From Thermoplasmata archaeon (GTDB lineage: Archaea > Thermoplasmatota > Thermoplasmata > Lutacidiplasmatales > UBA184), in assembly GCA_021816865.1 (NCBI GenBank), contig JAKAWX010000001.1, positions 40,794-104,793 of the forward strand: a stretch of 64,000 bases of DNA. Reading direction: 5' to 3'. Under the pieces are notes generated by a model. The model was not told the origin of the DNA and did no database searches. It worked only from the letters and a program-made list of their open reading frames with translations. The position numbers and the translations under genes were made by a program. Shown one piece after another: positions 3,007-21,468 of the stretch (the first letter of the stretch is position 1; every line of letters starts with the position of its first letter).

Positions 3007-3085
3007 CGGCGTCCTCGGCCGCCGAGCACGGGCCGGATAATAACCTCGGAGGCTGCGCCTCCGCGACGGGCGCGACCGGTTCCGG

Positions 3086-3098
3086 ATAAGCTTTAAGG
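3086..3098 (+). promoter_or_regulatory. Putative TATA box for tRNA-Ser(GCU)
   Basis: ATAAGCTTTAAGG is the only A/T-rich patch in the area and is centred about 30 nt upstream of tRNA position 1 (3124). Confidence 0.35.
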
Positions 3099-3123
3099 CG
3101 TGGCCCGGGCTCGGTCGCCCTGC

Positions 3124-3238
3124 GCGGGGATGGCCCAGCCCGGTAAGGCGCTGGATTGCTAATCCAGTGGTGGTTTCACCTCGGGGGTTCAAAGGAGGCG
3201 CCGGGAGTTCCGGTCCTCGGAGATTCCCCCTCCCCGCG
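3124..3238 (+). tRNA. tRNA-Ser (anticodon GCU) interrupted by a ~31-nt insertion in the T-loop
   Basis: Hand fold. Acceptor GCGGGGA/TCCCCGC (7/7 bp). D-arm GCC-CAGCCCGGTAA-GGC. Anticodon arm CTGGA-TTGCTAA-TCCAG. Long variable arm GGTG-GTTT-CACC. T-stem GGGGG (3183-3187) pairs with CCCCC (3226-3230) only if about 3194-3224 is removed, which leaves the T-loop TTCAAAT. Discriminator G; no encoded CCA. Confidence 0.8.
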
Positions 3239-3571
3239 TTCGGGTCCGGGCGCATCTTCCGCTCGGGCGCGGTAGATATCGCCCTCGCGCCGCACCCGGA
3301 CGGCCGACCCGACGGCGGGGAGCTCGCCGTCCACGATCGCGAGGAGCCGGACCTCCTCCGCGACCTCGACGAGCGCGAGCCGGTGCGGGCTCTCCCAGCC
3401 GGCCGCCGGATGGACGAGCTCCGTGGAGGCGAGCACCGTGCCGCCGGCGGCCACCGCGTACGGCTCCCGCTCGGTCGACCCGCACCTTGGGCACGGCGCG
3501 TCGGAGGGGAGGAAACGGGCCTGACAGGACGCGCAGCGGGAGACATCGAGGGTCTCCGGCTCCGCCGTCAC
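3176..3571 (-). CDS. DUF35 family Zn-ribbon/OB-fold protein (thiolase partner)
   Basis: C-terminal 131 codons of ORF 3176..3814. GTG start at 3571 overlaps the thiolase stop (GTGA). CASCQARF...CPRCGS rubredoxin-like ribbon followed by an OB-like region ([16 protein letters not shown]). The 3' end overlaps the tRNA-Ser gene antisense. Confidence 0.8.
3194..3224 (+). other. Non-canonical tRNA intron (T-loop position); exact boundaries +/-1-2 nt
   Basis: GGAGGCGCCGGGAGTTCCGGTCCTCGGAGAT lies between TTCAAA and T-CCCCC. It contains an internal CCGG-GAGTT-CCGG hairpin flanked by GAGG/CCTC pairing. Confidence 0.65.
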
Positions 3572-4701
3572 GCGCCCTCCCGGCCGAGGATCGTCACGAA
3601 ATTGTGGGAGGCGAGCCCGCTCATCGCGTGCGCGAGACCGATCTTGGGGGCGCGGGCGACCGCGTGGCGACCGGCCTCTCCGCGGAGCTGGAGAGCGACC
3701 TCCCCGACCTCGGCGAGGCCCGACGCGGCGACCGGATGGCCGCGCCCGACGACGCCGCCGCTCGGGTTCACCGGCACGCGTCCGTCGCGTCGGACCCACC
3801 CTCGCTCGAACCACTCGGCCGCCTCGCCGGGGCCGCAGATCCCGAGGTCCTCGATGTGGAAGAGCGCGAACGGGGAGAAGGCGTCGTGCACTTCCACGAG
3901 GTCGATCTGCTTGCGGGTGAGCCGCGCCGATTCGTACGCCCGCTGGGCGGCGACCCGGGTCGCCGCGAAGGAGGTGAGGTCGGCCCGGTCGACGATCCGC
4001 AGGGCCTCGAACCCTTGGCCCAGCCCGAGCACGGTGGCGGGTCCCTGGCCGCGCTCGAGCACCAGGGCGGTCGCCCCGTCCGAGATCGGCGAGCAGTGCA
4101 GGAGGCGGAGCGGGAGCGCGACCGGCCGGCTCGTCGCCACCTCGGAGGCGCTGACGGCCTTCTGGAACTGGGCGTTCGGGTTGTCGACGGCCATCGCCCG
4201 GGCGTGGACCGACGCGAGGTCGCAGACGTCCGTCGTCCGGCGGTAGCGCTCGAGGTAGCGCTGGGTGATCAGCGCCGCGAGCGCCGGCATCGTCGCCCCG
4301 ACCGCCACTTCGCTCGCGTGCAGCGAGGCGGCGAGCTCCTTCGTGATGATCGCGGTCGAGCGGTCGGTCATCTTCTCGGCCCCCACCACGAGGGCCCGCT
4401 CGAAGCGGCCCGACTCGAGGGCGAGCACCGCCGCGTGGAACGCCATGCCGCCGGTCCCGCTCGCGGAGTCGACCCGGAACCCCGACGCCGACTCGAGGCT
4501 GAGGTGGCTCGCGAGGCGCGGCAGGAACGCTTCCGCCCCGTAGGGGCCGTGCGCGAGCATCGTTCCCCCGACGAGAAGGTCGACCGGTTTGCGGCCGATC
4601 CCCTCGAGCGCTCTCCGCGCGGCTTCCGCCGCGAGGTCGAAGAGGCCCTCCGGGCGCTTGCCGTACCGGCCCATCCCCACGGACGCGACGTGGACGCTCA
4701 C
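3568..4701 (-). CDS. Thiolase-like acetyl-CoA C-acyltransferase (archaeal type)
   Basis: ORF track, 377 aa, GTG start. Thiolase-like motifs include VDSASGTGGMAF, CSPISDGATALVL and NPSGG. Followed by a DUF35 gene, the usual archaeal pairing. Confidence 0.9.
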   Translation of the reverse strand: MSVHVASVGMGRYGKRPEGLFDLAAEAARRALEGIGRKPVDLLVGGTMLAHGPYGAEAFLPRLASHLSLESASGFRVDSASGTGGMAFHAAVLALESGRFERALVVGAEKMTDRSTAIITKELAASLHASEVAVGATMPALAALITQRYLERYRRTTDVCDLASVHARAMAVDNPNAQFQKAVSASEVATSRPVALPLRLLHCSPISDGATALVLERGQGPATVLGLGQGFEALRIVDRADLTSFAATRVAAQRAYESARLTRKQIDLVEVHDAFSPFALFHIEDLGICGPGEAAEWFERGWVRRDGRVPVNPSGGVVGRGHPVAASGLAEVGEVALQLRGEAGRHAVARAPKIGLAHAMSGLASHNFVTILGREGA

Positions 4702-7206: not shown

Positions 7207-10200
7207 TTACTCCCTCCACGGCGGAACGGAGACGTTCGCGGGCGGCACGTACGGCGACGGCGGGTGGGGAGGCCGCCGACGCGATCGGTGCGCGAGATGG
7301 AGGACGACCGCGGCGATCGTTCCTCCCACGACGAGCCCGAGGAAGAGCGCCGCGAGCGAGCTCCCCGACCCAAGAGCCGTCGGGGAGGCTGGAGTGATCG
7401 TGAACGGGAGCTTCGCAAAGACGCGGGCGCCGGCGGCGTCCACGAGGGTGACGTTGATCGAGTACGCGCCCGGCCCGCCGTACGTGTGGGCCACGTCGAC
7501 GCCGCTCGCGGAAGAGCCGTCCCCGAACGACCAGTCGACGGAGTAAGGAGGGGTCCCCCCCTGGAACGCGGCCCGGAACTCGACCCCGGTGCCGACGGGA
7601 ACGGAATCGGTCGCGTTCCGCCCGACCGCGTAGAACGTCCCCGAAAGGTCGGGGTTCACGGTGACGTTCTCGGTGCGGTTGGCGTACGCGCCCCGGGCGT
7701 CCTGGTAGTCGAAGAGGACGGCGTACCGGCCCGCACGGTTCCAGGAGTGCGAGACGTTGAGTCCCGTCGCGGTCGTCCCGTCGCCGAACGTCCACTCCTC
7801 CGCGGACGCGCCCGACCCTCCCGAGACGATCGCGCTCAGGTTGATCGTTTGCCCCACGTCCGTCGCGTTCCCCGGGCTCGCGGAGACCGCGGTCACCGGG
7901 CGGGGCTGGACCTCGACGACGCTGCTGACGGAGACCGTCCGCCCCGTCGAATCTGCCACGGTCACCGTCAGGAGGTACGTCCCCGCCGTCGAATAGGCAT
8001 GAACGACCGAGAGGCCGGTGGCCGTGCCTCCGTCCCCGAAGTCCCAGGACGCGCCATAGCTCGGGATCCCGCCGGTGACGGTCACCTGGGCGGAGAGAGA
8101 GCCGCCCGCGTCGAGGGCCGGGAGAGGACCCGGTGTCAGGGCGAGGAGCGCGGTCAGGCGGGCCCCCACCGTGAGGTTCGTCGACGCACTCGCCGCGTGA
8201 CCGAGAGAGTCGGTCACGGTCGCGGCGAGGGTGTAGCTTCCGTTCACGGCGGGCGTGCAGTTCAGCGACAGTACGTCGGCGGAAAGGCAACCCGGCGGCA
8301 GCCCGGAGTAGGCGACGCTGACCGGTCCCGTGCCCCCGACGTATCCCAACAGAACGTGCGTGGTTGAGTTCACGTCGACCGTCGACGGCGACGCGGAGAG
8401 GAAAGTGATCTGGGGCAAGGTGGCGATCTCGCTGAGCGTGCCCGAGTGGGTGTTGGCCACGATCAGGGCGCCCGCCGCGGGGGCGGTGCTCCCGACCAGC
8501 GTTACGGGGTCGGGGTCGAAGGGCATTTCGCCCACCGCCATGCTGACCACCGAGGCCCGACTGGCGACCACGCTCGAGCCGTCCAGCACCGAGACCACGC
8601 CCGCGTTCGACGAACCTCCCGTCGTCATCGAGGCGTAGAGGAGTTCCCGCGTCGGGTCGAAGGCAAGTCCCGTGGTGAGGACGTGTGTCGGGAGGGGGAT
8701 CGGAGCGCCGACGACCGAGTTCGTGGTCGGGTCGATGACGGAGATGTTCGTCCCGAGCGCGTAGACGGCACCATCGGCGGCGTCGTAGGCCACGGAGCTG
8801 ACCCCGGTCCCCGCGAAGAGCGCCGGCACGACGACCCCGCCGGAGGCCGAGTCGACCACCTCGAGTTCGCCGGACGAGGTGTTCACCACGAAGAGTTCAC
8901 TAACCGCCGGATCCAAGGTCATCATCTGCTGCGACACGAGCCCCGTGGGCACATCGATCGAGTACGCGGGAGTCAGCCCTGCGAGGTGGAGTGCGACAAG
9001 ACCCCGGGGACCGTTCGCGAGCCACAGGAGGCCGTCCCCGGGGTCAACGAGCAGCGCCGAATTGGAGCCGGTGAGCCCCGAGTCGCTCGCGAGAAGCTGA
9101 CCGGTGGCGGGGTCGACGGCGTCCACCGCGTTGGCCAGACCGACGTACACGGTGCCGGTCGCGGGATCGACGGCGACCGAAGCGACCCCCGCGCCGAGGT
9201 GCAGGGGGGCGAGAGCGGTACGGCCCGTAGTCGCGTTCAGGACGATGACCGAGCTCGAGAAACTGTCGGTGACGAACAATTCGTTCGTCACGGGGTCGTA
9301 GCTCGAGCTCGCCGGTTGCGATCCGAGGGTGGGGGACCGGGCGGTGACGTCATGGGCGACCAGGTTGACCGTGCTCACGTTGCGTCCCACCGTGGACCAG
9401 ACCAGTGCATTGGAGCCACTACTTTCGACCACTACCGAGGTCAAGTTGGACCCGACACCAATAGCGGCGTCGAGAATGGCCCCTGAGGAGGAGTTCACGA
9501 TGACAAGGTTGGACCCCGAAGAGTTCCCCACAATGTACTCGGTCCCGTTGGCCGTCGTTGCCACCGGAGCCGAGCCGATGCCGGTGAGTTGAACCGCCTG
9601 AGGTGCCAGCACCGTCGCGTTCAAAATCACGATCTGCGATTTGGACGGTACGGTAACACCTACGGTTCCCGAGGACCTAGAGTAGGCCACCCCAGCGGGT
9701 GTCCCTTGCAAAGTGATTGATGGTCCGGAACCATCCGTCGTGACGTTAACGCTTCTCAGCAATCTATCACCACTATCCGCGATGAACAGGAATCCGTCAG
9801 CCGCGTCGAAAGCGAGGGCTGCTGGTCTTAGCCCGGTGGGAATGCCGCCATTCGCGACCGTGTTGCTCGAGGCATCGATGACGGTGATGTTGTTCGAGCC
9901 TGCGTTCGCGACGTACAAAGAGTTCGTCGCCGGGTCGAGGGCCAGGGCGACGGGGTCGGCCCCGACGGGGATCGCCGGGTGGAGCCAGGCTCCGGTGGTG
10001 GCGTTCAGGACCCCGACGCTCGCGTTCGCGTAGTCCGCCGAGTACAGGAGATCGTTGACGGGGTCGAAGAGGAACGCCGAGGTGTTCTCGACCGAGAGGG
10101 CGATCCCGACGAACCGGTTGGCGTTCGCGTTGAACTCCACGGCCGGGGCAACATTCGGCGCCGGGAGGCCGCCGACCGAGACCGCCCGTTCCGGGAGCCA

Positions 10201-10584
10201 GAGGTCGCCCGTCGACGGCACGTAGGCCGGGCTGCCCACCTGCCAGCCGGCGACCGAGGAAGGGAAGTTGCCGGGGAGGGACCCGTTGTAGTTCGGCAGG
10301 ATCGACCGGAGGACGGAACCCGCGCCCGCCCGCGGCGACGACGACGACGCTGACGCGGCGCCCGCCGGAGGGGCGGGGAACGTGACGTGCGGCGAGAGAA
10401 GGCTCGGGGAGGCCCCGGCGGCGGAGGTCCCGGCCTCACCGGCGAGACCCATCGACGTCCGTTCCCCGGGAACGAAGGCGGAGCCGTACGCGGCCAGGGA
10501 GGCGAGCAGCAAGCAGCCGACCACGGCGAGGACGCGCGCTCGGGGCCGGAACCCGCCGGGGCCCCGGCGTCGACGGGAGGCCAT
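7207..10584 (-). CDS. Surface protein: signal/anchor + YVTN beta-propeller repeats + 4 PKD/Ig-like modules + C-terminal TM anchor
   Basis: ORF track, 1125 aa. N-terminal RVLAVVGCLLLASLAAYG. YVTN-like repeats, e.g. LYVANAGSNNITVIDASSNTV and LFVTDSFSSSVIVLNATTG. W-x-FGDG PKD motifs (WDFGDGGTATG, WTFGDGTTATG, WSFGDGSSASG). C-terminal LAALFLGLVVGGTIAAVVL followed by a basic tail. Confidence 0.9.
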   Translation of the reverse strand: MASRRRRGPGGFRPRARVLAVVGCLLLASLAAYGSAFVPGERTSMGLAGEAGTSAAGASPSLLSPHVTFPAPPAGAASASSSSPRAGAGSVLRSILPNYNGSLPGNFPSSVAGWQVGSPAYVPSTGDLWLPERAVSVGGLPAPNVAPAVEFNANANRFVGIALSVENTSAFLFDPVNDLLYSADYANASVGVLNATTGAWLHPAIPVGADPVALALDPATNSLYVANAGSNNITVIDASSNTVANGGIPTGLRPAALAFDAADGFLFIADSGDRLLRSVNVTTDGSGPSITLQGTPAGVAYSRSSGTVGVTVPSKSQIVILNATVLAPQAVQLTGIGSAPVATTANGTEYIVGNSSGSNLVIVNSSSGAILDAAIGVGSNLTSVVVESSGSNALVWSTVGRNVSTVNLVAHDVTARSPTLGSQPASSSYDPVTNELFVTDSFSSSVIVLNATTGRTALAPLHLGAGVASVAVDPATGTVYVGLANAVDAVDPATGQLLASDSGLTGSNSALLVDPGDGLLWLANGPRGLVALHLAGLTPAYSIDVPTGLVSQQMMTLDPAVSELFVVNTSSGELEVVDSASGGVVVPALFAGTGVSSVAYDAADGAVYALGTNISVIDPTTNSVVGAPIPLPTHVLTTGLAFDPTRELLYASMTTGGSSNAGVVSVLDGSSVVASRASVVSMAVGEMPFDPDPVTLVGSTAPAAGALIVANTHSGTLSEIATLPQITFLSASPSTVDVNSTTHVLLGYVGGTGPVSVAYSGLPPGCLSADVLSLNCTPAVNGSYTLAATVTDSLGHAASASTNLTVGARLTALLALTPGPLPALDAGGSLSAQVTVTGGIPSYGASWDFGDGGTATGLSVVHAYSTAGTYLLTVTVADSTGRTVSVSSVVEVQPRPVTAVSASPGNATDVGQTINLSAIVSGGSGASAEEWTFGDGTTATGLNVSHSWNRAGRYAVLFDYQDARGAYANRTENVTVNPDLSGTFYAVGRNATDSVPVGTGVEFRAAFQGGTPPYSVDWSFGDGSSASGVDVAHTYGGPGAYSINVTLVDAAGARVFAKLPFTITPASPTALGSGSSLAALFLGLVVGGTIAAVVLHLAHRSRRRPPHPPSPYVPPANVSVPPWRE
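7395..8410 (-). repeat. Tandem PKD/Ig-like domain repeats (protein level) inside the surface-protein gene
   Basis: About four ~85-aa modules, three of them with the W-x-FGDG...H-x-Y motif. Boundaries approximate. Confidence 0.6.
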
Positions 10585-10642
10585 CTCGGAAAGCTCAGCC
10601 GCGGGCCAACTTAAACCCGTCCGTCGAGTCGCGGCGCGCCGG

Positions 10643-11629
10643 TCAGTCCATCGTGCGGATGACCCGGGCCGCGTGGGCGTCCACGATGATGGCGTACGGT
10701 TTTCCCTTGCGTTCCAGGCGGAACTGCCAGAGCGGAACGTGCAGGAGCTCGCCGTCCTGGATGTCGACCTGAGTGTTCAGGTTCGAGACCATGCTGTGCT
10801 TCTTGTGCGCCGCCTCGCTCTGGAGCTCCTGTACGTGCGCCCGGGCGCTCCCCTTCGCGGCGTCCTCGGTGAGGTCGCCGTTGAGGACCGGGGCGGTCGA
10901 TGGGATCGACTTCTTGTCGAAGAGGGTCCGGTCGTCGAGGCCGAACTGGTACTCCTTGGGCTGGTAGGCGCTCATCGCCTTCACCGCGATGACCGGGAAC
11001 TCGTACTGGCCCGAGATCGTCTCGGAGCGGGTCGGGTTGACGACGGGCCCGGTCATGATCGGGATCGGGACGAACCCTCCCTGTCGTCCCCCGCCGAGCG
11101 CGCTCCCGAGGACCTCGGCGGCGGCGATCGTGCCGATCGTCGCGCCGACGCTCGTGGCGACCGCCTGGTACTGGTACGTCGTCGACGCCGACGCCGGTAG
11201 TACCCAGAACGGCACGTAGGAGAGCTTCGAGTCGACGACCTTCGACTCCTCGAAGTCGTGGCGGTGGAAGAACCCCGAGTCGATCCAATCGTGGACGACC
11301 TTGATCGCCGCCGCGGGGTCCGCGACCTTGAGCGGGAGCATCGTGTGCTTGTTGATCTCCTTCCAGCCGGCGCCGCCGAGCGTCACCGAGCCGCCGCAGT
11401 AGTCGCAGGTGACGACCGTCTCGCCGAACGTCGGGTGGATCGGCGCGCCGCACGACGGACACTTGAGCTCCTGGGCCCCCGAAGCCCCGATCGTCGCGCT
11501 CGCCGAGGAGCTCGACGGCGCGGTCGGTGCGGTCGGGGCCGTTCCCCCCGGACCCGCCATGGGCGCGCCGCACTTCGGGCAGAATCGGGCGTCGTCGGGC
11601 ATCGAGGTGCCGCACTTCATGCAGAACAT
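10643..11629 (-). CDS. Double zinc-ribbon protein with unassigned ~230-aa C-terminal domain (possible YdjG-like partner of the SPFH protein)
   Basis: ORF track, 328 aa. FCMKCG...FCPKCG and CPSCG...CDYCGG ribbons. Lies 40 nt downstream of the SPFH gene on the same strand. Confidence 0.75.
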   Translation of the reverse strand: MFCMKCGTSMPDDARFCPKCGAPMAGPGGTAPTAPTAPSSSSASATIGASGAQELKCPSCGAPIHPTFGETVVTCDYCGGSVTLGGAGWKEINKHTMLPLKVADPAAAIKVVHDWIDSGFFHRHDFEESKVVDSKLSYVPFWVLPASASTTYQYQAVATSVGATIGTIAAAEVLGSALGGGRQGGFVPIPIMTGPVVNPTRSETISGQYEFPVIAVKAMSAYQPKEYQFGLDDRTLFDKKSIPSTAPVLNGDLTEDAAKGSARAHVQELQSEAAHKKHSMVSNLNTQVDIQDGELLHVPLWQFRLERKGKPYAIIVDAHAARVIRTMD

Positions 11630-11669
11630 CGTCGATCCTCGCTCCGTGGTGCCGTCGACCCCGGGCGCC

Positions 11670-12827
11670 TCAGCCGAGCGCCGCGCCGCAGTTCGGACAG
11701 AACTTTCCCGCGCTCGTCACGTCGAGGCCGCACTTCGGGCACTTGCGCGGCGGCGGGGGAGCGAGGGACGCCCCGCAGCTCGGGCAGAACTTGGCCCCGG
11801 GCGCGGTCGGCTGGCCGCACTTCGGGCACGGGGGTCCTCCGGCCGCCGCGGGAGCGGCGCCGAGGGGGTTCCCGCATCCCGGGCAGAACCGCGTCCCGGC
11901 CGGGACGAGCGTGCCGCACTTCGGGCACGGCTGGCCGGGGCCCTGAGCGTACGCGCCCTGCATCTGGCCGGCCATGCCGTAGCCGATCCCGAGTCCCGCG
12001 CCGAGCCCGACGCCCGCGCTCGCGAGCGCCCCCGCGCCGCCCGACGGATTCGCCGCCGCGGTCGTCATCGCCTGGCCGGCCTGGTACTGCATGTAGTTCA
12101 CACCGAGCACGCTCATCGTCGAGCGCGTGTCGACCGCCTTCTGGACCTCGTCCGGGAGGTTGATCGAGATTCCCTGCAGCTGCAGCACCTCGACGCCGAG
12201 CGGGCCGAAATGCTGGGGAGAGAACCCGAGGACCGCCTGTTCGATCGTGGAGAGCTGGGTCGCGATGTCGGTGACGCGCATCCCCTGCTCCTTCAGCTTC
12301 CCGAGCGTGTTGTAGACGAGGAGGACCATCTGGTCCCGAAGGCGCCCCTCGACGTCCGAGGCCGTCGCGGCACCGAACGTCCCGACGAACTGGTTGATGA
12401 AGTTGTCCGGAGCCCCGACCTTCCAACGATAGCTGCCGAAGACGCGGAGGGAGACGAGGCCGAAGTCGGGGTCCCGGAAGACGTACGGCTCGGCGCTGCC
12501 GTACTTGCCGTCGAAGATGCGTCGCTGAAGGTAGTACACCTCCGCCTCCTGCCGGACGCCCGAGAGCGCCTGGACCAGGTTGCCGATCAGCGGGGCGTTC
12601 ATGCTCGTGAGCGCGTAGCGGTCCGGCTTCTCGAGGTAGGCGAGGACCTTGCCGTCCCGGTAGAAGACGGCGGTCTCGTCCTCCCGGACGACGATGTTGT
12701 CGTTCCATCGGATGTTCCGGGGAACGCGCCACATGACGTTGGCGCCCTTGTAGGCGTCCTCCCAGTTGACCGTCGTGGCGCCGATCAGGCTCCCGCCCTT
12801 CGCCGGAATGGGGTTGTTCGTGACCAT
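11670..12827 (-). CDS. SPFH/Band-7 family protein of the YdjI type (COG4260-like) with three C-terminal zinc ribbons
   Basis: ORF track, 385 aa. N-terminal region VMWRVPRNIRWNDNIVVREDETAVFYRDGKVLAYLEKPDRYALTSMNAPL and LRVFGSYRWKV fit the YdjI-type SPFH pattern. C-terminus has CPKCG..FCPGCG, CPKCG..FCPSCG and CPKCG..FCPNCG. GAGGA lies upstream of the ATG. Confidence 0.85.
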   Translation of the reverse strand: MVTNNPIPAKGGSLIGATTVNWEDAYKGANVMWRVPRNIRWNDNIVVREDETAVFYRDGKVLAYLEKPDRYALTSMNAPLIGNLVQALSGVRQEAEVYYLQRRIFDGKYGSAEPYVFRDPDFGLVSLRVFGSYRWKVGAPDNFINQFVGTFGAATASDVEGRLRDQMVLLVYNTLGKLKEQGMRVTDIATQLSTIEQAVLGFSPQHFGPLGVEVLQLQGISINLPDEVQKAVDTRSTMSVLGVNYMQYQAGQAMTTAAANPSGGAGALASAGVGLGAGLGIGYGMAGQMQGAYAQGPGQPCPKCGTLVPAGTRFCPGCGNPLGAAPAAAGGPPCPKCGQPTAPGAKFCPSCGASLAPPPPRKCPKCGLDVTSAGKFCPNCGAALG

Positions 12828-12843
12828 CGTCCTCTTCCTTCTC

Positions 12844-13539
12844 CTAGGCGACCCGGATCCCCTCGACCGTCTGCATCCGTGCGCGGAACGCCTGATCGAG
12901 CTGGCTCACTTGACCGCGGGCGGTGGAGACGAGCGCCGCCACCGCGGCGGGGGCTCCCCCGACCGCCAGCGACGGCAACGAGGCGATCGTCCGGTTGAGC
13001 TCGTCGGCCGCCTCGACGAACCCGTAGTCGTACTCGTAGAGCCGGTCGAGCTGCTGGGGATTGACGCGAACCGCCGGAGAGATGCCGGTGTACCCCTGCT
13101 CGGCGTGGCGGATCTCGCCTTCGAGCCGCATCAGGTCGGCGATCATCGGGGCGAGGTCGTTGAGGGCGGAGAACTGGCCGGCGTTCGCGAGCGCCGTGCG
13201 AGAGTTCTCGATCGTGGTCCGGGCGTTCTTCACCTTGTCGGCGATCTGGAGCCTCAGGAAGCTGTCCGCCTCGCGGAGGTCCTCCCCCTGGCGGTAGCCG
13301 CGGAAGCCGGGGACGAGCAACTGCAGGCGCTTCAGCCAACCCCGGTCGTTCTCGACCTTCTGGCGGATGTCGAGCGGAGGAGCGCCGGGGGAAACGGCCG
13401 TCCCGGTCGAGCTGCCTCCCGTCACGACGAGCGACGAGCCGCACACGTTGCAGAACCGCGCGCCCGCGGGCGACGGCGTGCCGCACTTCGGACAGGTCGC
13501 GCTCGGGCCGGGGGGAGTGGGAGGAGCGCTCGCGGCCAT
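12844..13539 (-). CDS. Zinc-ribbon + helical/coiled-coil protein
   Basis: C-terminal 231 codons of ORF 12844..13719. The ATG at 13539 lies 1 nt after the stop of the upstream membrane-protein gene (13541-13543). CPKCG..FCNVCG ribbon, then a helical region (LRLQIADKVKNARTTIENSRTALANAG...). Confidence 0.75.
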   Translation of the reverse strand: MAASAPPTPPGPSATCPKCGTPSPAGARFCNVCGSSLVVTGGSSTGTAVSPGAPPLDIRQKVENDRGWLKRLQLLVPGFRGYRQGEDLREADSFLRLQIADKVKNARTTIENSRTALANAGQFSALNDLAPMIADLMRLEGEIRHAEQGYTGISPAVRVNPQQLDRLYEYDYGFVEAADELNRTIASLPSLAVGGAPAAVAALVSTARGQVSQLDQAFRARMQTVEGIRVA

Positions 13540-13540
13540 G

Positions 13541-14095
13541 TCACGGGCTCCGGGGAGGGGGAGGGGCGCCCGGGGAGGAAGGGGGCGGAGGCACCTCGGG
13601 AACGCTCGGGGAGTTCGCGGCCGCGTACGAGAACGCGGAGCGGGCCGGTTCGCCCTGCCACGCGGCCCGGGCCACCTGCTGGTTCTGCGTGGCGCGGACG
13701 GCGCGACCGCGCCAGGCAATCAACGCGACGGCGACGATCAGCACGACGACGATGATCAAGAGCGCCCAGAGCTGCGCGACGACGCCGAGGACCCCGTACG
13801 TCGGGCCGAGGCCGACCGTGAGCAGGAGGACGGCGAACCCCATCCCGAAGAATCCCCAGGCGAGCGACCGCTGGGCGGTGGGGTCGCGCGAGAACGACTC
13901 CGCGAGGTAGGACCCGAGGGCGAGCAGGAGCGCGACGATCCCGATGGAGATGAGCGCGAAGAAGTGTTGGTTGGCCGGCAGGGTGTAGTAGATCGCGAGG
14001 AAGAGGAGAACCGCCGCGACCAGGAAAAGGCCCGTGAGCAGCCAGCCGCTATACCGGTCGCGAACCGGCGCCAGCGCCGGTGAAGTTCCCTGCAT
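13541..14095 (-). CDS. Integral membrane protein (about 4 TM helices) with Pro-rich C-terminus
   Basis: ORF track, 184 aa. Hydrophobic segments: WLLTGLFLVAAVLLFLAIYY, FFALISIGIVALLLALGSYL, LAWGFFGMGFAVLLLTVGLG, LWALLIIVVVLIVAVALIAW. Confidence 0.8.
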   Translation of the reverse strand: MQGTSPALAPVRDRYSGWLLTGLFLVAAVLLFLAIYYTLPANQHFFALISIGIVALLLALGSYLAESFSRDPTAQRSLAWGFFGMGFAVLLLTVGLGPTYGVLGVVAQLWALLIIVVVLIVAVALIAWRGRAVRATQNQQVARAAWQGEPARSAFSYAAANSPSVPEVPPPPSSPGAPPPPRSP

Positions 14096-14127
14096 ATTCC
14101 CCGTGCCGGTGGAAAATGCAGATGCGA

Positions 14128-14134
14128 CTATAAG
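14128..14134 (-). promoter_or_regulatory. Putative TATA box for the membrane-protein/SPFH operon
   Basis: Minus-strand CTTATAG, about 35 nt upstream of the ATG at 14095, in the 63-nt gap after the TPR gene stop. Confidence 0.3.
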
Positions 14135-14158
14135 AGCCTGCGGCCGAGGGCCGGCGGC

Positions 14159-17100
14159 TCAGAGGCGTGGCTCGTCGTCGTGTTTCTCGCGTTTCGGGCG
14201 GACGGCGGCGGGTACGGGAGGGGGCGGGGGCTCGGGGATCGCCTTCGAGGCCGTCTTGGCTTCCTTCGGGGGAGCGGCCGCGTTCGGGGCTTCCTTGCGG
14301 ACGGGGAGCGTGGCCGGAGGCCCCTTCGTCCTATCGGGCGAAGGCGGCTTGGACGTGTGGTCGGCGTGCGGAGGGGTCTTCGCGGGTCCCTCCCGGGGGA
14401 GCGCGACCGGTTTCGTCCGCTGGAAGACCCCTCGGAGCCCCCCGCCCCCGGTCGACGGACGGGCGACCGGTCGGCCCGACGGTGCGTGGACGCTCACGCC
14501 CTCGAGCGGTCGGGTCGACTCGGTCGTGATCGGCTGGCCGCACTTTGGGCAGTGCGGGAACTGGCCGACACAATGCTGGCAGAGCGGGGCGGAGCAGGTG
14601 TGCAGGACCGAAGCGATTCCCCCGCAGCCGACGCACCGAGCGACCGGGGTACTGGTGCCGTGGGCAGTGCCGGCGGCGCGGGGGCCCGCCCCCGATGCGG
14701 CCGTCGGAGGACGAGCCCAGTCGGACGAGGGGGCCACGGACACGGTCGAGGCCCCGGAAGCCGCCCCCCGCGCCTCCGCGGGGCCCGTGGGCTCGCCGTC
14801 CGGCTCCTCCGAGGTCCGGAACTCGGGGGAGTACGCCCCGAGGTCGAGCGCGGGAAGCGGCGCGTGGGCCGCGGCCCCGGCGGATTCGACGACCTTGATG
14901 AGGCGGGCCTTGTACACCCCGACCTTGAGGTTCTTCACGATCTGGAACAGCGTGCGCTGCTCCGCCGGGAGCCCGAGCGCTTGCCGGGCGAGGTCCTCGA
15001 CGTCGGGCGTCAGCTCGAGGTTTTCCGCCTTCAGGTTCGTCTCGAGGACCGCTTTGAGGTAGCCGAAGAGCCGCTGGATCCGGTCGAGCGTGTACGACGA
15101 GGGGGCGAGGGCCGCGACGTCGGCGAGGGTGAGCCCACGTCGCTCGATCCCCGGGGACCGACGTTCGAGCGCGGACGTGATGAGATGGTAGGAGGCGTTC
15201 TCGAGCTCTCGCACTTCGGCGGCGTCGAGATGGTCGAGGTCGACGGTGTCGGCGTGCGAGATCGTCGTGAGGACCGGTTCGAGGAACTCGTACGGCACGT
15301 GGAGCGTGACGAAGAGGTCGTTCTTGGTGACCGTGCGGCCGAGTCGCGCCTCGAGGAGGAGTGCCTCCCGGCCGTGGCGCTGGATCTCCGTGTCCCGGGT
15401 CTTCTGCACCGCGACCTTCTTCCCCTCCTTCGCCGGCGCGAAATCGGAGTCGAGCGCGAGCGCCCGGTCGAAGGACGCGACCGCGTCGGTGGGCCGTCCG
15501 ATCGCGACGAGCGCGAGTCCGCGGCTCGTCCACGCCTGCTTGTGGTTCGGGTCGGCCGCGGTCGCCCGGTCGTAGAGCGCCAGCGCCTCGTTGGGGTGCT
15601 GGAGGCGCATCGCGACCAGCCCGGCCCGCAGGAGGACCTCGACGTTCGCCGGGGCGAGCGAGAGGGCGTGCGCGAACGCGTCCGACGCCTCCGACCACGC
15701 CTGCCGGGCGGTCGCGAGCTCCCCGAGGCGGACCCAGAGCGGGACGCTCTTCGGGAGGAGCTCGACCCCCTTGCGGAGCGTTTCGTCGGCGACGTCGAGG
15801 TGCGCGAGGCCACTCTCGGCCTCGGCGAGGAGCAGGTAGAGCGACTCCTGGGGGGGGACCTGGGGGAGCGCGGCCCGGACAAACTCGGCCGCCTCGGCGT
15901 GCTTGCCTTCCTCGAGCATCGACTTCGCGATGCCGGCGAGCGCGATCGGGGACTTCGGCTCGCGCCGGCGCACCTCCTCGAAGACCCCGCGGGCTTCCGC
16001 CGGACGTTCGAGGCCGCTCAGGATCTCCGCGCGCAGGAGCTGGGCCGCGAGGTTCGAGGGGCCGCCCTCGGGCACGGCCTTCAGGCCGTCGTCCAGGACC
16101 TCGAGCGCGAGGTCGGGTCGCCCCGCAGTAAGGCGAAGCCGGGCGCGTCGGATCGCGATCTCGACCTTGAGGACGGGGTCGACCTGGGCCGCCCGTTCGT
16201 ACGCCTGGTTCGCCTCCTCCGCGAGGCCGAGCGCCGCGGCGAGGTCGCCGCGGTCGAGCTGGAGCGCGGCGTCGCTCGCCTCGGGGGCATCGGTCGCGAG
16301 CAAGCGGGTGAGGTCGTCGTACGCCTCGCGCGTCTCGCCCGCGTCGCGGTGGAGCCGGTACATCTCGAGCAGCGCGGGACCGTTCTCGGGCTCGAGGAGG
16401 AGGATCGCCCTGAGCGAGTAAAGAACCTCGCTCGGACGTCCGAGCGACCGCAGCGCGTCGCCCCGCACCTTCCACGCCGCGAGGTCGTTCGGCTCCTCGA
16501 CGAGCAGCGGGTCGACGATCTGAACGACCTCGGAATACTGCCCGGCGAGCTGGAGGGTCTCCGCGAGGGCGAGACGGCCGTGGCGGTTCTTCGGGTCGAT
16601 CGTGAGCCCTTGACGGTAGTACGCGATCGCGTCGGCGTACGCCCCCTGCGCCCGCAGCGCTTCGGCGACCTCGAAATGGGCGTGCGGGTCGCCGCGGGTC
16701 GTCTGGACCGCCTGCTGGAGGACGGAAAGCGCCTCGGCCCGCCGCCCGGTCTTGAGGAGGAGCTGGCCCTTCTTTCTCAGGAAGAGGGGGTTCGACGGTT
16801 CGCGCCGGAGCAGGAGGTCGAGCAGCTGGAGGGCGCGGGCGTCCTGGTTGAGGAGCGCCAGGACCTCGACGGCGCCCCAGAAGAGGTCGGGGTCCTCGGC
16901 GCCTCCCGAGATGGCCCGGCCGTACGCCTCGTTCGCCTCCGAGTAGTGCCCGGTCTCGCGCAGGGTGTGCGCGAGCTCCTTCAGGATGTCGAACCGCCGC
17001 GCGTTGTCCGGGTCGTCGAGGAACCGCCGGTACGCCTCGATCGCCCGCTCGGGGTCCCCCACGAGCCGGGAGGCCCGAGCGATCCCGAGCTCCGCGACGT

Positions 17101-18694
17101 TCGCGGCTTCCGCGGCGCTCGACGCTCGCTCGTAGGAGACGAGCGCGGTCCGGGCGGCCCGGTCACGCTCCGCCGAGCCTTCGGGCTGGTCGTAGGCGAG
17201 CGCGAGCCAGAGGTTCCCTCGCTCGACCGCGACGTCCGTCCGGGTGGGGTCGAGCCGGAAGAGCTCGTCCAGGACCGGCGCCAGGGCCGCAGGGTCGTTC
17301 GTTCGGGAAACAACAGCTTTCTTCTCGAGCAGGTACTCGACCTCGCCCGGGCGCGCGCTCAGGAGCGCGTCGTAGGCTCCGATCGCCCCGGCGAGGTCGC
17401 CTTCGGCGGTCAGGGTACGGGCGAGGGCGAGCCGGGCGGCCGGGTCCCCCGGTTCGTCGGCGAGGATCGCGTTCGCAAAGTCGCGGACGACCTCCGGCCG
17501 CTTCAGCGTTTGCGCGACCTCGAGCCCCTTGCGGATCTCCGCGACCGCGTGCGGATGGGCCGCGCGCAAGGTCCGGTAGGCCTCGACAGCGCCGTCCGCG
17601 TGGCCGAGCGCGAGCTCGATCTCCGCGATCCCGCGCATCGCCTCGAGATTGTCCGGATAGGCCGCGAGCACCGCCCGGCACGCCCCGAGCGCGACGTCGG
17701 ATTTCTCGAGGCGGACCGCGAGCGAGCGGAGTTCGAGGAGGTTCTGCAGGTTGCGGGGCTCGACGTCCCTCAGGCGCTCCCGGGCGGCGAGCGCGAGCTC
17801 GGGCGCCCCCGATTCGGTGAGCGCAGCGACCTCGGCGAGCGCGGGGGCGTCCGGGGGCGCCGAAGTCTCCACGATCGCCTTCACGATCGGCAGGCCCTCG
17901 ACGGTGCGCCCGAGGCGGAAGAGGAGACGGGCGTAGAGGAGGGTCGCGCGGGCATCGTCCGGATGGCCCGCGAGAATCGTCTTGAGCGGCTCGAGAGCGT
18001 CCTCGGTTCGGCCGACCGAGGCGAGGAGCTCGGCGCGCGCGCGCAGGAGGTCGAGGTCGCCGGGGTTCTCCTTGAGCAGCTCTTCGCACGCCGCGAGCGC
18101 GGGCAGGTCCCCGCCGACCGCCCGCGCGAGCTCGAGCTTCGTCCGGAGCACCCGAGGGTCGTGGGGCGCGAGCTTGAGAGCCCGATCGACGTACTGTGTC
18201 GACGCCGCGTCGAGCTGCTGCGCCCGGAGGTACGCCTCGACCGCGTCGGCGGTTTCGCCCTCCAGCCGGAGGGCGTCGCCGCGCGTCGCCCAGAGGCTCT
18301 TGTCGTGCGGGCTCCCTTCGAGCGCCTTGTCCACGAGCGCGACGACCTCGGGAAGGTCCCGGTTCTGCGCCAGGAGGATGAGCGCTTTGTGGTGGAGGAG
18401 GCCGGAGTGGCCCGGGGCGAGCTTGAGCCCGAGGTCGGCGGCCCGGCGGGCGAGCTCGGGCTGGGAGGCTCGCGAGAACGCGAGCGACGCTTCGTCGAGC
18501 CACGGCGCCACCTCGCTGCCGGCTCGCGCCACTTCGGCCGAATGCTGCTCGACGGTCGCCAGGAACGCCTTCAGCGCCCCGAGATGCCGCGGCCGGTCCG
18601 GGCGGGACTCCGCCTCCTGAGCGGCCTGCCAGCGGAGTCGTACCGCCTCGAGCGGGTCGGCCGTACGCTCGGCCGCGGACTCCCGTTCTCCCAT
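14159..18694 (-). CDS. Giant TPR-repeat protein (1511 aa) with C-terminal Cys-rich zinc finger and Pro/Lys-rich tail
   Basis: ORF 14159..19957 trimmed to the ATG at 18694 (MGERESAAER), because the upstream 421 codons are antisense to the HD-domain gene. More than 25 TPR-like units (e.g. AEALRAQGAYADAIAYYRQGLTIDPKN). C-terminus has CVGCGG...HTCSAPLCQHCVGQFPHCPKCG. Confidence 0.85.
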   Translation of the reverse strand: MGERESAAERTADPLEAVRLRWQAAQEAESRPDRPRHLGALKAFLATVEQHSAEVARAGSEVAPWLDEASLAFSRASQPELARRAADLGLKLAPGHSGLLHHKALILLAQNRDLPEVVALVDKALEGSPHDKSLWATRGDALRLEGETADAVEAYLRAQQLDAASTQYVDRALKLAPHDPRVLRTKLELARAVGGDLPALAACEELLKENPGDLDLLRARAELLASVGRTEDALEPLKTILAGHPDDARATLLYARLLFRLGRTVEGLPIVKAIVETSAPPDAPALAEVAALTESGAPELALAARERLRDVEPRNLQNLLELRSLAVRLEKSDVALGACRAVLAAYPDNLEAMRGIAEIELALGHADGAVEAYRTLRAAHPHAVAEIRKGLEVAQTLKRPEVVRDFANAILADEPGDPAARLALARTLTAEGDLAGAIGAYDALLSARPGEVEYLLEKKAVVSRTNDPAALAPVLDELFRLDPTRTDVAVERGNLWLALAYDQPEGSAERDRAARTALVSYERASSAAEAANVAELGIARASRLVGDPERAIEAYRRFLDDPDNARRFDILKELAHTLRETGHYSEANEAYGRAISGGAEDPDLFWGAVEVLALLNQDARALQLLDLLLRREPSNPLFLRKKGQLLLKTGRRAEALSVLQQAVQTTRGDPHAHFEVAEALRAQGAYADAIAYYRQGLTIDPKNRHGRLALAETLQLAGQYSEVVQIVDPLLVEEPNDLAAWKVRGDALRSLGRPSEVLYSLRAILLLEPENGPALLEMYRLHRDAGETREAYDDLTRLLATDAPEASDAALQLDRGDLAAALGLAEEANQAYERAAQVDPVLKVEIAIRRARLRLTAGRPDLALEVLDDGLKAVPEGGPSNLAAQLLRAEILSGLERPAEARGVFEEVRRREPKSPIALAGIAKSMLEEGKHAEAAEFVRAALPQVPPQESLYLLLAEAESGLAHLDVADETLRKGVELLPKSVPLWVRLGELATARQAWSEASDAFAHALSLAPANVEVLLRAGLVAMRLQHPNEALALYDRATAADPNHKQAWTSRGLALVAIGRPTDAVASFDRALALDSDFAPAKEGKKVAVQKTRDTEIQRHGREALLLEARLGRTVTKNDLFVTLHVPYEFLEPVLTTISHADTVDLDHLDAAEVRELENASYHLITSALERRSPGIERRGLTLADVAALAPSSYTLDRIQRLFGYLKAVLETNLKAENLELTPDVEDLARQALGLPAEQRTLFQIVKNLKVGVYKARLIKVVESAGAAAHAPLPALDLGAYSPEFRTSEEPDGEPTGPAEARGAASGASTVSVAPSSDWARPPTAASGAGPRAAGTAHGTSTPVARCVGCGGIASVLHTCSAPLCQHCVGQFPHCPKCGQPITTESTRPLEGVSVHAPSGRPVARPSTGGGGLRGVFQRTKPVALPREGPAKTPPHADHTSKPPSPDRTKGPPATLPVRKEAPNAAAPPKEAKTASKAIPEPPPPPVPAAVRPKREKHDDEPRL

Positions 18695-18787: not shown

Positions 18788-20068
18788 GTGGGCGCGGCCG
18801 TGCCGCCCCGAGGGAACCGGTCGGCTCCGCACAAGTTGATCTTCGACCCCGTGCACGGTCCGATCGCCTTCCACGGCGCGCCGCTCGCGCTGCTCGGCAC
18901 GCCCGAGTTCCAGCGGCTGTGGGGCATCCGGCAGACGGGGTTTGCCCACCTCGTGTTCCCGGGGGCGAACCACACGCGGCTCGAACACTCGCTCGGGGCG
19001 TACTGGGTCGCCGAGCAGATGGCCGCGCACCTCGGCCTCGACCCGGCCGCCGTCAGTCGGGTCACGGTCGGCGCGCTCCTCCACGACCTCGGCCACGGGC
19101 CGTTCTCGCACACGCTCGACGGGCCGATGGTCGAAGTGCTCGGCCACGGCCACGAGAGGCTCTCGCGGCGGAGGATCGAGGGCTCCGACCGCGAGTGGCC
19201 GGAGAAGCGGGTCGAGGTCCCGCGGGTCCTCGAACGCCACGGGCACTCGCCCCGGTCGGTCGCCGACCTCGTCGACCCGCCGGGCGATGGCCCCGGTCCC
19301 GCGCTCCTTCGCGAAATCCTCCACGGGGCGGTCGACGCCGACCGCATCGACTACCTGCAGCGCGACGCGTACTACACCGGTGTCGCCCACGGGGCGATCG
19401 ACGCCGTCCGCCTGCTCGACACCGTGCGGTCGGTCCACGGACGGGTCGCGTTCGCGGAGAAGGGCCGCAGCGCGGTCGAGGGGTTCCTGGCCGGTCGGGC
19501 GCTGATGTACTCGTCCGTGTACTACCACAAGACCGTCCGCGCGGCCGAGATGATGGCCCAAGCGGCGTTCGAGCGCCAATCCGGCTACCCCGACGTGGCC
19601 CGGAGCCTCTTCCGCGTCACCGACGGTGAACTCCTCGTGCGGCTCGCCGACGGCGGCCCCGTGAGCGCGGCTCTGGTCCGCGGGCTCCTCGACCGGCGCC
19701 TCTACAAGCGGGCGTACGGAGCCCGTTCGGTGACCCGGTCCACGCGCGCGGCGTGGCGCCGGTTCGTCCGGGCGCCCCCGGAGCGACGGGCGCTCGAGGA
19801 CGAGATCGCCGGGCGCGCTCGGGCGCCGCCCGGCTCGGTCCTCATCGACCTTGCCGGCCTCGAGCCCCGCGGCGTCCCCGAGGAGGACTGGGACCGCCTC
19901 GGCCTGCAGGTCGGCGCGAGGACCACGTACCCGTTCCGGGCGCCGAGTCCGTGGCACGCGCTCGCCACGCGCGCTCCCGCCGACTGGCCCGTCAGCGTCT
20001 TCGCGGCCCCGCGGTGGCGCGCTTCGGTGGCGCGGGTGCTGTCGACCGGCCGCGTCGCGCTCCCGTAG
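18788..20068 (+). CDS. HD-domain phosphohydrolase, SAMHD1/dGTPase-like (COG1078 type)
   Basis: ORF track, 426 aa. Motifs: LIFDPVHGPI, NHTRLEHSLG, LLHDLGHGPFSH, DADRIDYLQRDAYYTG. Confidence 0.85.
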   Translation: MGAAVPPRGNRSAPHKLIFDPVHGPIAFHGAPLALLGTPEFQRLWGIRQTGFAHLVFPGANHTRLEHSLGAYWVAEQMAAHLGLDPAAVSRVTVGALLHDLGHGPFSHTLDGPMVEVLGHGHERLSRRRIEGSDREWPEKRVEVPRVLERHGHSPRSVADLVDPPGDGPGPALLREILHGAVDADRIDYLQRDAYYTGVAHGAIDAVRLLDTVRSVHGRVAFAEKGRSAVEGFLAGRALMYSSVYYHKTVRAAEMMAQAAFERQSGYPDVARSLFRVTDGELLVRLADGGPVSAALVRGLLDRRLYKRAYGARSVTRSTRAAWRRFVRAPPERRALEDEIAGRARAPPGSVLIDLAGLEPRGVPEEDWDRLGLQVGARTTYPFRAPSPWHALATRAPADWPVSVFAAPRWRASVARVLSTGRVALP

Positions 20069-20489
20069 ACAAGGGCGGCCGGGCCGCCGTGTCCTCGTGG
20101 GCCATCAATCGGTCCCACGTGTCGTCGGGGACCCGCACCACGGAGAGGCGCGGCAGCCGCACGAGGTCGAAGCCGGCGAGCGCCGGGTCGGCTTTCACTT
20201 CGGCGAGGGGGATGGGGCGACGGAGGGCCCGGACCGGCGCGACCTCGACCGACCAGGAGCCCCGGGGGTCCGTCGGGTCCGGGTGCGGCGCGGCCAGGAC
20301 CTTCACTAGTCCGACGAGCGCGCGCTCCGTACCGGTGTGGTAGAAGATCGCGCGCTCCCCTACGGACATCGACCGGAGATTTCGCAGGGCGAGGGCATTG
20401 TGGACGCCGTTCCAGTCGGTCCGCCCGTCCCGGACCAGGTCGGTCCAGGCGTAGTGATCCGGCTCTTCCTTCAGGATCCAGTGTGCCAC
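19992..20489 (-). CDS. EVE (PUA-like, DUF55) domain protein
   Basis: ORF track, 165 aa, GTG start. Motifs: HWILKEEPDHYAW, WNGVHNALALRNLRSM, AIFYHTG, RLSVVRV. The 3' end overlaps the convergent HD gene by 77 nt. Confidence 0.85.
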   Translation of the reverse strand: MAHWILKEEPDHYAWTDLVRDGRTDWNGVHNALALRNLRSMSVGERAIFYHTGTERALVGLVKVLAAPHPDPTDPRGSWSVEVAPVRALRRPIPLAEVKADPALAGFDLVRLPRLSVVRVPDDTWDRLMAHEDTAARPPLSTGARRGRSTAPAPPKRATAGPRRR

Positions 20490-20688: not shown

Positions 20689-21468
20689 CTAGCCGAGGAG
20701 GATCCCCTGGTGCGTGATGAGGAACGGTCGACGTTCCGGGTCGTGGGCGCAGCCGCGCATCCGGACGATCTTGATCTGGCGGACCGAGCGGTCGCCGACC
20801 CACTTCCGCGTCAGGAGGATCTCCCCGCGCGTCAGGACCTCCTCGGGCGTTAGAACGCCGGGGTCCTTCGGTGTCGCCGTGATGAGCGCGGTGACCCCGG
20901 ACTCCGAGAAGAAGCGCAGGAGCGACTGTATCTCCGTCCGTTCGGCCTGCGGGTCCGCGGACGCCTTGATCGTGAACCGGCGGATCGACGTGATCGAATC
21001 GACCAGGACCCGGCGGAACGGGACGTCCGCCATCTGCTGCCGGAGCTTGAGCTGGATCGACTGGATCGAGATCTCTTCGGCGTCCCCGCCGCGCTTCGCC
21101 TCGAGCGAGAGGTCGCGCATCGACTTGAGGTCGGTCATCGTCCGGATCTCTTGCACGGCCATGTTGCGCTTGATCGCGCGGGTTCCCGGGTTCGCTTCGA
21201 GGGTCTGGATGGCCGAGAGGTCCCAGCCGAACGACTGGACGTTCTCGATGATCTCGTTGGGCGGCTCGTCGACGGCGACGAGCAGGACCTTCTCGCCTCG
21301 GCGCAGGCCCTCGAGGAGGAACGTGAGGCCGAGGAGGGTCTTCCCGCTGCCCGACCCCCCAGTGACGAGGTACGGCCGGCCCGCCACGAGCCCTCCGCCG
21401 AGCATGCGGTCGAGGCCCGGGATCCCGGTCGCGACGCGGTGCTCCGCCAGGAGGGCGCTCGCGCTCAC
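20689..21468 (-). CDS. KaiC/RecA-superfamily ATPase, single domain (second of pair)
   Basis: C-terminal 259 codons of ORF 20689..22239. The GTG at 21468 overlaps the upstream stop (GTGA). Motifs: GIPGLDRMLGGGL, Walker A GGSGSGKT, Walker B-like RVLVDSIT. Confidence 0.85.
   Translation of the reverse strand: MSASALLAEHRVATGIPGLDRMLGGGLVAGRPYLVTGGSGSGKTLLGLTFLLEGLRRGEKVLLVAVDEPPNEIIENVQSFGWDLSAIQTLEANPGTRAIKRNMAVQEIRTMTDLKSMRDLSLEAKRGGDAEEISIQSIQLKLRQQMADVPFRRVLVDSITSIRRFTIKASADPQAERTEIQSLLRFFSESGVTALITATPKDPGVLTPEEVLTRGEILLTRKWVGDRSVRQIKIVRMRGCAHDPERRPFLITHQGILLG

Follow-up and report, generated by a model that had tools for sequence, protein, structure and literature searches.

What kind of system is encoded where an SPFH protein, two further zinc-ribbon proteins, a small membrane protein and a giant TPR protein lie in a single row of genes? 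The question is raised by positions 10643-18694 of a 64-kb stretch of DNA from a Thermoplasmata archaeon (contig JAKAWX010000001.1; the whole stretch is referred to here as the window). Its G+C content is about 72%, and Thermoplasmata metagenome-assembled genomes are the source of all close relatives of its proteins. SPFH proteins and members of the PspA/ESCRT-III superfamily have a central part in organising and repairing membranes. A first-pass annotation of the window had likened the genes to the Psp membrane-stress systems of bacteria, with one of the ribbon proteins in the place of PspA. The answer favoured here keeps the first half of that idea and drops the second. The cluster is probably a Thermoplasmata version of the SPFH membrane module typified by YdjI and YdjG (SamI/SamG), with a three-gene core, additions specific to one subclade, and a helical protein that serves as adaptor or regulator.

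All five genes are on the minus strand, as are all features of the cluster described below. In the order of transcription they encode the TPR protein (1511 amino acids, 14159-18694), a four-transmembrane (4-TM) protein (184, 13541-14095), a protein with a zinc ribbon and a helical domain (231, 12844-13539), the SPFH protein (385, 11670-12827) and a YdjG-like protein with two ribbons (328, 10643-11629). Their annotated starts match the alignments of orthologues. When the coordinates were derived anew, the spacers came out at 63, 1, 16 and 40 nucleotides, the values given before.

One striking aspect is the recurrence of the motif CPKCG. It is present in literal form six times, three times in the SPFH protein and once each in the helical, 328-residue and TPR proteins, and CMKCG makes a seventh, near-match, in agreement with the earlier count of seven literal or near-literal sites. 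All six literal copies in the 64-kb window are inside these four proteins, and none is in the roughly 33 other predicted proteins, so the clustering is real and not a matter of chance. Does this make a shared module, as had been claimed for every soluble member? For three of the proteins it does. The ribbons of the SPFH, helical and 328-residue proteins are ordinary Zn_Ribbon_1/DZR domains by Pfam, families that usually begin with a CPxCG knuckle. In the TPR protein the motif belongs to something else. There, CPKC forms the final knuckle of a compact cysteine cluster (residues 1354-1386, nt 14537-14635), which offers eight potential zinc ligands, follows the pattern CxxC-x7-HxC-x4-CxxC-x6-CPKC and is kept in 34 of 34 TPR orthologues. 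Compared with ribbon families, this cluster reached a best E of 0.027 (DZR_2) and had no Zn_Ribbon_1 match at E <= 1. Therefore, the likeness is genuine for three proteins and superficial for the TPR protein.

The identity of the SPFH protein is the firmest starting point. It matches Pfam Band_7_1 (PF13421) with E 2e-32 and 113 bits against a cut-off of 24, over residues 34-239 (nt 12111-12728). A Gly/Ala/Met-rich linker follows (residues ~255-296, nt 11940-12065), and then three Zn_Ribbon_1 ribbons by Pfam (residues 300-384, nt 11676-11930). There is no membrane anchor by hydropathy, since the highest 19-residue Kyte-Doolittle window is 1.32 and the threshold is 1.6. B. subtilis YdjI/SamI has the same combination; it is anchor-free, has a low-complexity region as well as a C-terminal zinc finger, and is recruited by the membrane proteins SamG and SamH (PMC8581546; bioRxiv 10.64898/2026.02.06.704340). 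By these sequence features the protein is clearly of the YdjI/SamI type, as first proposed. Orthologues with 55-99% identity were found in 80 archaeal species genomes, the 99% being to the counterpart in 'Thermoplasmata archaeon isolate LL4.bin73', and the number of C-terminal ribbons differs among them, mostly two or three. A search of the Protein Data Bank (PDB) with the sequence alone gave no matches, and one with a profile met nothing but ribbons and, weakly, stomatins, so no solved structure is matched by sequence. A search of plasmids produced 19 distant Band_7_1 matches, two of which were inspected. One, from Nocardia, was uninformative. The other, from Paracoccus, turned out to be the key to the next protein.

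On the Paracoccus replicon the Band_7_1 gene is followed by one for a 428-residue 'zinc ribbon domain-containing protein' whose C-terminus is a TM helix. When 15 archaeal orthologues of the 328-residue protein are combined into a profile, the profile aligns with this bacterial protein at an hhalign probability of 97.3% (E 2e-11; residues 1-327 against 10-372). The alignment is not confined to the ribbons. It spans ribbon 1, ribbon 2, an LP-x-W/PFW stretch and a C-terminal H-x-P-x-W...GK motif. The two ribbons of the archaeal protein (nt 11558-11626 and 11390-11464; Pfam Zn_Ribbon_1/DZR, residues 2-80) have cysteines that are invariant in the 15 orthologues. Behind them comes a conserved domain (nt 10646-11377) for which Pfam, NCBIfam and PDB gave no match, the PDB profile search meeting the ribbons only. 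A hydrophobic insert rich in Gly and Ala interrupts this domain (about nt 11060-11182). Hydropathy shows no clear TM helix, its maximum of 1.53 being under the threshold. In place of the C-terminal TM helix of the Paracoccus protein, archaeal YdjG-like proteins have the Gly/Ala/Met-rich insert, which is internal. YdjG itself has been described as having a pair of ribbons, an NTF2-like domain not yet characterised and a TM segment (Ravi et al., PMC11237479). The NTF2-like fold expected of the YdjG type is related to YpeB. On the grounds of this architecture and of homology to the bacterial protein encoded beside a Band_7_1 gene, the 328-residue protein can be called YdjG-like, in line with the first-pass comparison.

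Several other observations concern this family. In Nitrososphaerota loci (L052, L066, L072, L083 and others; e.g., L072:3647-4690) the insert has grown into a long Gly/Met-rich tract, for example GGMGGGRRGGMGFGTGVLEGTLIGGMVGGGGGG. The tract is glycine-zipper-like and may associate with the membrane in place of the C-terminal TM helix of the bacterial proteins. One Thermoplasmata genome has two tandem YdjG-like genes after its SPFH gene (L051:9208-10242 and 10301-11338). For two representatives of distinct YdjG-like clusters, P0344 and P0374, the longest contig listed has 339,479 bases in each case, and the two may be the same. In Paracoccus ferrooxidans pFER4 (L090:1698-6416) the genes for TelA (toxic anion resistance), a DUF2927 protein, a Band_7_1 SPFH protein and a YdjG-like two-ribbon protein with a TM helix follow one another in that order. 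This may be another variant of the module, with TelA in the upstream slot held elsewhere by the helical protein. TelA was also considered as a relative of the helical family, but the comparison showed no similarity.

How constant is the gene order? GTDB species genomes were scanned with the SPFH alignment and the best 80 loci were taken, which are the closest orthologues of one SPFH subfamily. All reading frames were then searched with profiles, and the counts given here cover loci with enough flanking sequence. The loci belong to Thermoplasmatota (including Cuniculiplasma and 'Ca. Sysuiplasma') and Nitrososphaerota (Nitrosotalea, Nitrosopumilaceae). The helical gene is directly upstream of the SPFH gene without exception, in 61/61 Thermoplasmatota loci and 17/17 from Nitrososphaerota and unlabelled archaea (78/78 in total). 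A YdjG-like gene is downstream in 54/58 and 15/17, respectively (69/75 in total). The 4-TM gene, on the other hand, is present in 44 of 57 Thermoplasmatota loci and in none of 16 others, and the TPR gene in 30 of 42 and none of 11. The 4-TM gene, the ribbon on the helical protein and the TPR giant are confined to one Thermoplasmata subclade. With the sole exception of L057, every locus with the 4-TM gene and a scorable helical gene has the ribbon on its helical protein. Three loci (L053, L065, L073) keep the 4-TM, ribbon-helical and SPFH genes while the TPR and YdjG-like genes are absent; in L073, the one of the three that was inspected, a HerA-like gene is upstream. The proposal that the genes occur together thus has to be divided. 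It is borne out across two archaeal phyla for the core of helical, SPFH and ribbon genes, but not beyond a single subclade for the 4-TM and TPR genes.

The most constant partner is also the least familiar. The 231-residue protein has a zinc ribbon at residues 16-37 (nt 13429-13494) and a helical-bundle domain at residues 56-231 (nt 12847-13374). The latter belongs to a widespread, unnamed family of mostly stand-alone proteins of ~175 residues, represented by 300 clusters at E <= 1e-10 and 1050 at E <= 0.001, the majority without a ribbon. It matches NCBIfam NF047596 (LIMLP_15305) over 145 of 175 positions with E 2e-11. The score of 44 bits is far below the curated cut-off of 210, which makes the protein a relative of that family and not an equivalog member. 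Family signatures are IPGxxGY...E..R.AD..LR, RHA..GYSG and LD.LYE.D. An AlphaFold2 model from a diverse alignment gives an all-helical bundle, with a predicted local distance difference test score (pLDDT) of 88.4 and a predicted template modelling score of 0.84. Matches to the helical profile in a protein search were mostly archaeal, and tblastn of the helical domain against plasmids gave none. No published functional description of LIMLP_15305 or the helical family was found in a literature search.

Where else are its genes found? When members of the family were looked up independently, a Band_7_1 gene was at most two genes downstream in 9 of 10 contigs with enough flank; in the remaining one the neighbour was an IS605-type transposase gene. 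Two bacterial arrangements are more telling. In L091 a helical-DUF4178 fusion (702-1721) is followed by PspA_IM30 (1846-2526) and then by Band_7_1 with ribbons (2957-4039), and DUF4178 is a domain that has been reported in PspA operons. In L094/L095 the order is again helical, PspA_IM30 and Band_7_1 with ribbons, with a helical protein of 435 residues that has a long disordered tail. The PspA_IM30 matches in these operons reach E 6e-42. The helical family therefore coexists with true PspA and, together with the contig look-ups, this places it in the Psp/SPFH neighbourhood as something distinct from PspA. It is also the contextual support for linking the archaeal cluster to Psp-type membrane-stress systems at all. 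Perhaps, then, the family is a previously unrecognised and ancient core partner of YdjI-type SPFH proteins in bacteria and archaea, and acts as the working effector or regulator where operons do not have PspA (Thermoplasmatota, Nitrososphaerota). This is put forward tentatively, the odds being against it. If true, the family would be a new protein class in the Psp/SPFH network, distinct from PspA homologues.

Two further details of the family may be mentioned. In the linker between ribbon and helical domain, an SSTGT motif (residues 43-48, nt 13395-13412) is near-invariant in 37 orthologues and is flanked by variable Pro/Ala-rich sequence. Three proteins that were matched via the ribbon only (P0192, 1317 residues; P0202; P0234) have 6 to 19 tandem CxxC...CxxC zinc ribbons.

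What remains of the cluster is the part restricted to the subclade. The 4-TM protein is the only one of the five in which hydropathy reveals four hydrophobic spans, as first described. It had no significant match in Pfam or NCBIfam, its cytoplasmic tail is conserved, and its stop codon ends 1 nucleotide ahead of the helical start codon. Upstream, the intergenic region (14096-14158) contains the TATA-like CTTATAG noted before, here located at 14128-14134, 38 nucleotides ahead of the 4-TM start codon. Of 34 orthologous upstream regions, 29 have a TATA-like pentamer, in most cases 32-41 nucleotides before the ATG, compared with a mean of 1.3 of 34 after shuffling, and the spacer is otherwise G+C-rich across orthologous loci. 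The region is a probable internal archaeal promoter for the operon of 4-TM, helical, SPFH and ribbon genes. In two distant lineages, small unrelated frames with four predicted hydrophobic spans are immediately upstream of the helical gene (L096:1299-1652, 117 residues; L063:7049-7420, 124 residues), a positional match to the 4-TM gene of the window. The L096 protein was tried as a relative of the 4-TM protein, and no similarity was detectable.

The TPR protein consists of TPR families by Pfam, a non-TPR C-terminal region and a Pro-rich tail. Its gene is an upstream neighbour in 30 of the 42 scorable Thermoplasmatota loci and in none of the 11 others, so its association with the operon is weak. 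The conserved TATA-like box lies between the two, and the gap sometimes has inserted genes. In L040, L043 and L044 the gap is widened to 0.77-2.8 kb, and those of L043 and L044 have candidate reading frames, the largest of which is phosphoesterase-like by motif only. The conserved box, enlarged spacers and restricted distribution together indicate that the TPR gene is an upstream neighbour peculiar to its lineage and probably makes up a transcription unit of its own. Read-through, or a local functional link between it and the operon, is possible.

Might the helical protein nevertheless be the PspA/ESCRT-III-like remodelling element of an archaeal Psp system, as a homologue or direct substitute? 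There are reasons to ask, given that PspA is likewise the first gene in the Firmicutes pspA-ydjGHI operon with its YdjI-type SPFH gene, that the archaeal protein is predicted to be all-helical, and that operons without PspA leave an effector slot open for it. Yet each comparison points away from PspA. PspA_IM30 and Snf7 are absent among the listed Pfam matches of 59 family members, and PspA, Vipp1 and ESCRT-III are absent from the matches of the helical profile to PDB sequences at E <= 10. In hhalign the family aligns with PspA at a probability of 0.2-0.4%, whereas the PspA-versus-PspA positive control gives 97%. The query for PspA was presumably the E. coli sequence, and it matches PspA_IM30 over its full length (E 9e-49). 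Predicted structure agrees. An earlier AlphaFold2 model from close homologues reached a pLDDT of 67, which was too weak, and its Foldseek result was discounted. The pLDDT-88 model met only generic four-helix bundles in the PDB (best E 0.05, TM-score below 0.55); PspA, Vipp1 and ESCRT-III entries were absent from the top 50, there were no matches at E <= 0.001, and viral structures produced nothing significant. A strongly amphipathic N-terminal helix was looked for in the protein and none was found. Finally, the family sits beside genuine PspA in L091 and L094. Neither sequence nor profile nor predicted fold makes the helical protein PspA/ESCRT-III-like, contrary to the suggestion of the first-pass annotation. 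Homology is disfavoured, and it is quite improbable that the protein is PspA in any guise, a direct substitute included.

A different possibility is that all five genes, the TPR giant among them, encode a single functional complex whose members are joined through ribbon-ribbon or ribbon-TPR contacts. The adjacency of the TPR gene, which reaches down to 67% SPFH identity, the invariable presence of the 4-TM gene wherever the TPR gene is found, the conserved TPR finger ending in CPKC, and the confinement of the CPKCG motifs of the window to the cluster would all fit. What does not fit is that the TPR gene is missing from every Nitrososphaerota locus and from the remaining Thermoplasmatota loci that keep the core, and that L053, L065 and L073 have the 4-TM gene and the helical ribbon without it, with a HerA-like gene upstream in L073. 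The box between TPR gene and operon, the enlarged gaps with their candidate frames, a TPR finger of a different type from the other ribbons, and the variable number of SPFH ribbons also speak against it. A five-member complex is thus unlikely, if somewhat less so than a PspA role for the helical protein. What if the cluster is not a housekeeping membrane module but an antiviral defence or conflict system? SPFH and zinc-ribbon proteins are present in some conflict systems, and genes for KaiC-like ATPases, an HD-domain protein and an EVE-domain protein are near the cluster. Those neighbours are not conserved beyond the subclade, though, PADLOC gave no matches for the five proteins, and the core is syntenic in 80 species genomes of two archaeal phyla with no mobile-element context visible. 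A defence function is very improbable, the least likely of these alternatives.

The preferred reading remains that of a YdjI/YdjG-type membrane module. The domain identities, the homologies, the gene order and its conservation are direct observations, and a mechanism can be sketched as follows. The ancestral core would have comprised the helical-bundle protein, a soluble Band_7_1 SPFH protein with C-terminal ribbons and the two-ribbon YdjG-like protein. One subclade would have gained a gene for a 4-TM membrane protein, ending 1 nucleotide before the helical gene, and an N-terminal ribbon on the helical protein. The operon is probably driven by its own TATA-like promoter, with the TPR gene as a lineage-specific neighbour. 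The SPFH protein would oligomerise at the inner membrane face. By analogy with Bacillus, in which SamG and SamH anchor cytosolic SamI, it could be held there via the 4-TM protein and the hydrophobic Gly-rich insert of the YdjG-like protein. The complex would then organise or restrain a membrane-stress sensing or maintenance function, with the helical protein as a constant adaptor or regulator of the SPFH oligomer and not a PspA homologue. Given that the number of SPFH ribbons is variable, a valency or tethering role appears to fit them better than a single specific docking site. The first-pass suggestion that the ribbons could be a common docking handle has to reckon with a helical ribbon confined to one lineage and a TPR finger of another type.

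There are points that weigh against this reading. Kinship to B. subtilis YdjG and YdjI is drawn through a Pfam family, an architecture and one proteobacterial intermediate, and the archaeal YdjG-like protein does not have the TM segment of its bacterial counterparts. Lineages such as L053, L065 and L073 do without a YdjG-like gene. As the 80 loci are orthologues that share descent, the counts measure conservation and not independent events. The PspA profile (E <= 1) found nothing in the window and, for the 80 archaeal loci, nothing up to 8 kb away, although it detects PspA in L091 and L094, and TPM_phosphatase (the YdjH/SamH type) had no match among the five cluster proteins; the effector side known from Bacillus is thus missing. 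Lastly, membrane recruitment, oligomerisation, the stress function and any role of the ribbons are inferred.

Why does the module matter? The pairing of SPFH with YdjG has already been described from Firmicutes, and in the literature searched, experiments on the soluble YdjI/SamI class come from Bacillus subtilis only. The class and its YdjG-like partner are now seen to be conserved in two archaeal phyla, with ammonia-oxidising Nitrososphaerota and acidophilic Thermoplasmata among the carriers. The literature was searched for LIMLP_15305, COG4260, PF13421 and archaeal SPFH with zinc ribbon, and neither an archaeal operon of helical, SPFH and ribbon genes nor a partnership of the helical family with SPFH proteins was found described. 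As the most constant SPFH partner, and one that shares an operon with PspA in some bacteria, this family is a new candidate component of Psp/SPFH systems. The archaeal three-gene system would also be a simpler setting in which to study what SPFH proteins do without PspA in the operon.

The surroundings of the cluster can be described briefly. Divergent from the TPR gene is an HD-domain gene (18788-20068, plus strand), whose 3' end is overlapped on the opposite strand by an EVE-domain gene (19992-20489, minus). Two KaiC/RecA-like ATPase genes follow (20689-23936, minus), one with a long Pro/Ala-rich tail. In the close relatives L001 and L002 the order of the HD and ATPase genes is unchanged; the EVE gene was called in L001 alone. 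The gene directly downstream of the operon (7207-10584, minus) encodes a predicted surface protein of 1125 residues. Its N-terminus resembles a signal or anchor, it has PKD-like repeats and several copies of a beta-propeller-like segment, and there is a TM helix at its C-terminus; L001 and L002 likewise have PKD-domain genes downstream. An Rfam search of the window gave no matches.

How does the cluster compare with known systems? The closest is the B. subtilis pspA-ydjGHI (pspA-samGHI) operon. In both, the SPFH protein is soluble, is of the Band_7_1 type and has a low-complexity linker followed by one or more C-terminal zinc fingers; its partner has an uncharacterised domain besides two N-terminal zinc ribbons; and at least one membrane protein is encoded within the operon. 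Unlike its counterpart, the archaeal cluster has neither PspA nor a TPM-domain YdjH, follows another gene order and opens its core with an extra helical-bundle protein of an unnamed family. Its YdjG-like protein has the Gly-rich hydrophobic insert instead of a TM helix, its membrane partner is an unrelated 4-TM protein, and its SPFH protein has three ribbons. The bacterial operons L091 and L094 share the helical family, the type of SPFH protein (Band_7_1 with ribbons) and the order of the two genes. They differ in having true PspA_IM30 between the helical and SPFH genes and a DUF4178 domain or long disordered tail, not a ribbon, on the helical protein; YdjG-like and 4-TM genes were not seen in them.

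Two more distant comparisons are instructive. In the 'Meth_adaptin' ESCRT neighbourhoods of Methanobacteriales there is an SPFH protein with a coiled coil and a zinc ribbon (Makarova et al. 2024, PMC10936438). The shared elements are an archaeal SPFH protein with a zinc ribbon and a contextual link to the ESCRT-III/PspA superfamily. However, that system has Vps4, ESCRT-III and adaptin-like proteins, none of which was found in the window cluster, just as the loci related to it have no PspA-profile match within 8 kb. The membrane-anchored HflK/C-FtsH, QmcA-YbbJ/NfeD and FloA/FloT systems have in common with the cluster the SPFH fold and a presumed oligomeric membrane scaffold that regulates its partners. 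HflK/C, QmcA and FloA/FloT have TM or hairpin anchors of their own, long coiled coils, and NfeD or FtsH partners, whereas the SPFH protein of the window is soluble, ends in ribbons and keeps other company.

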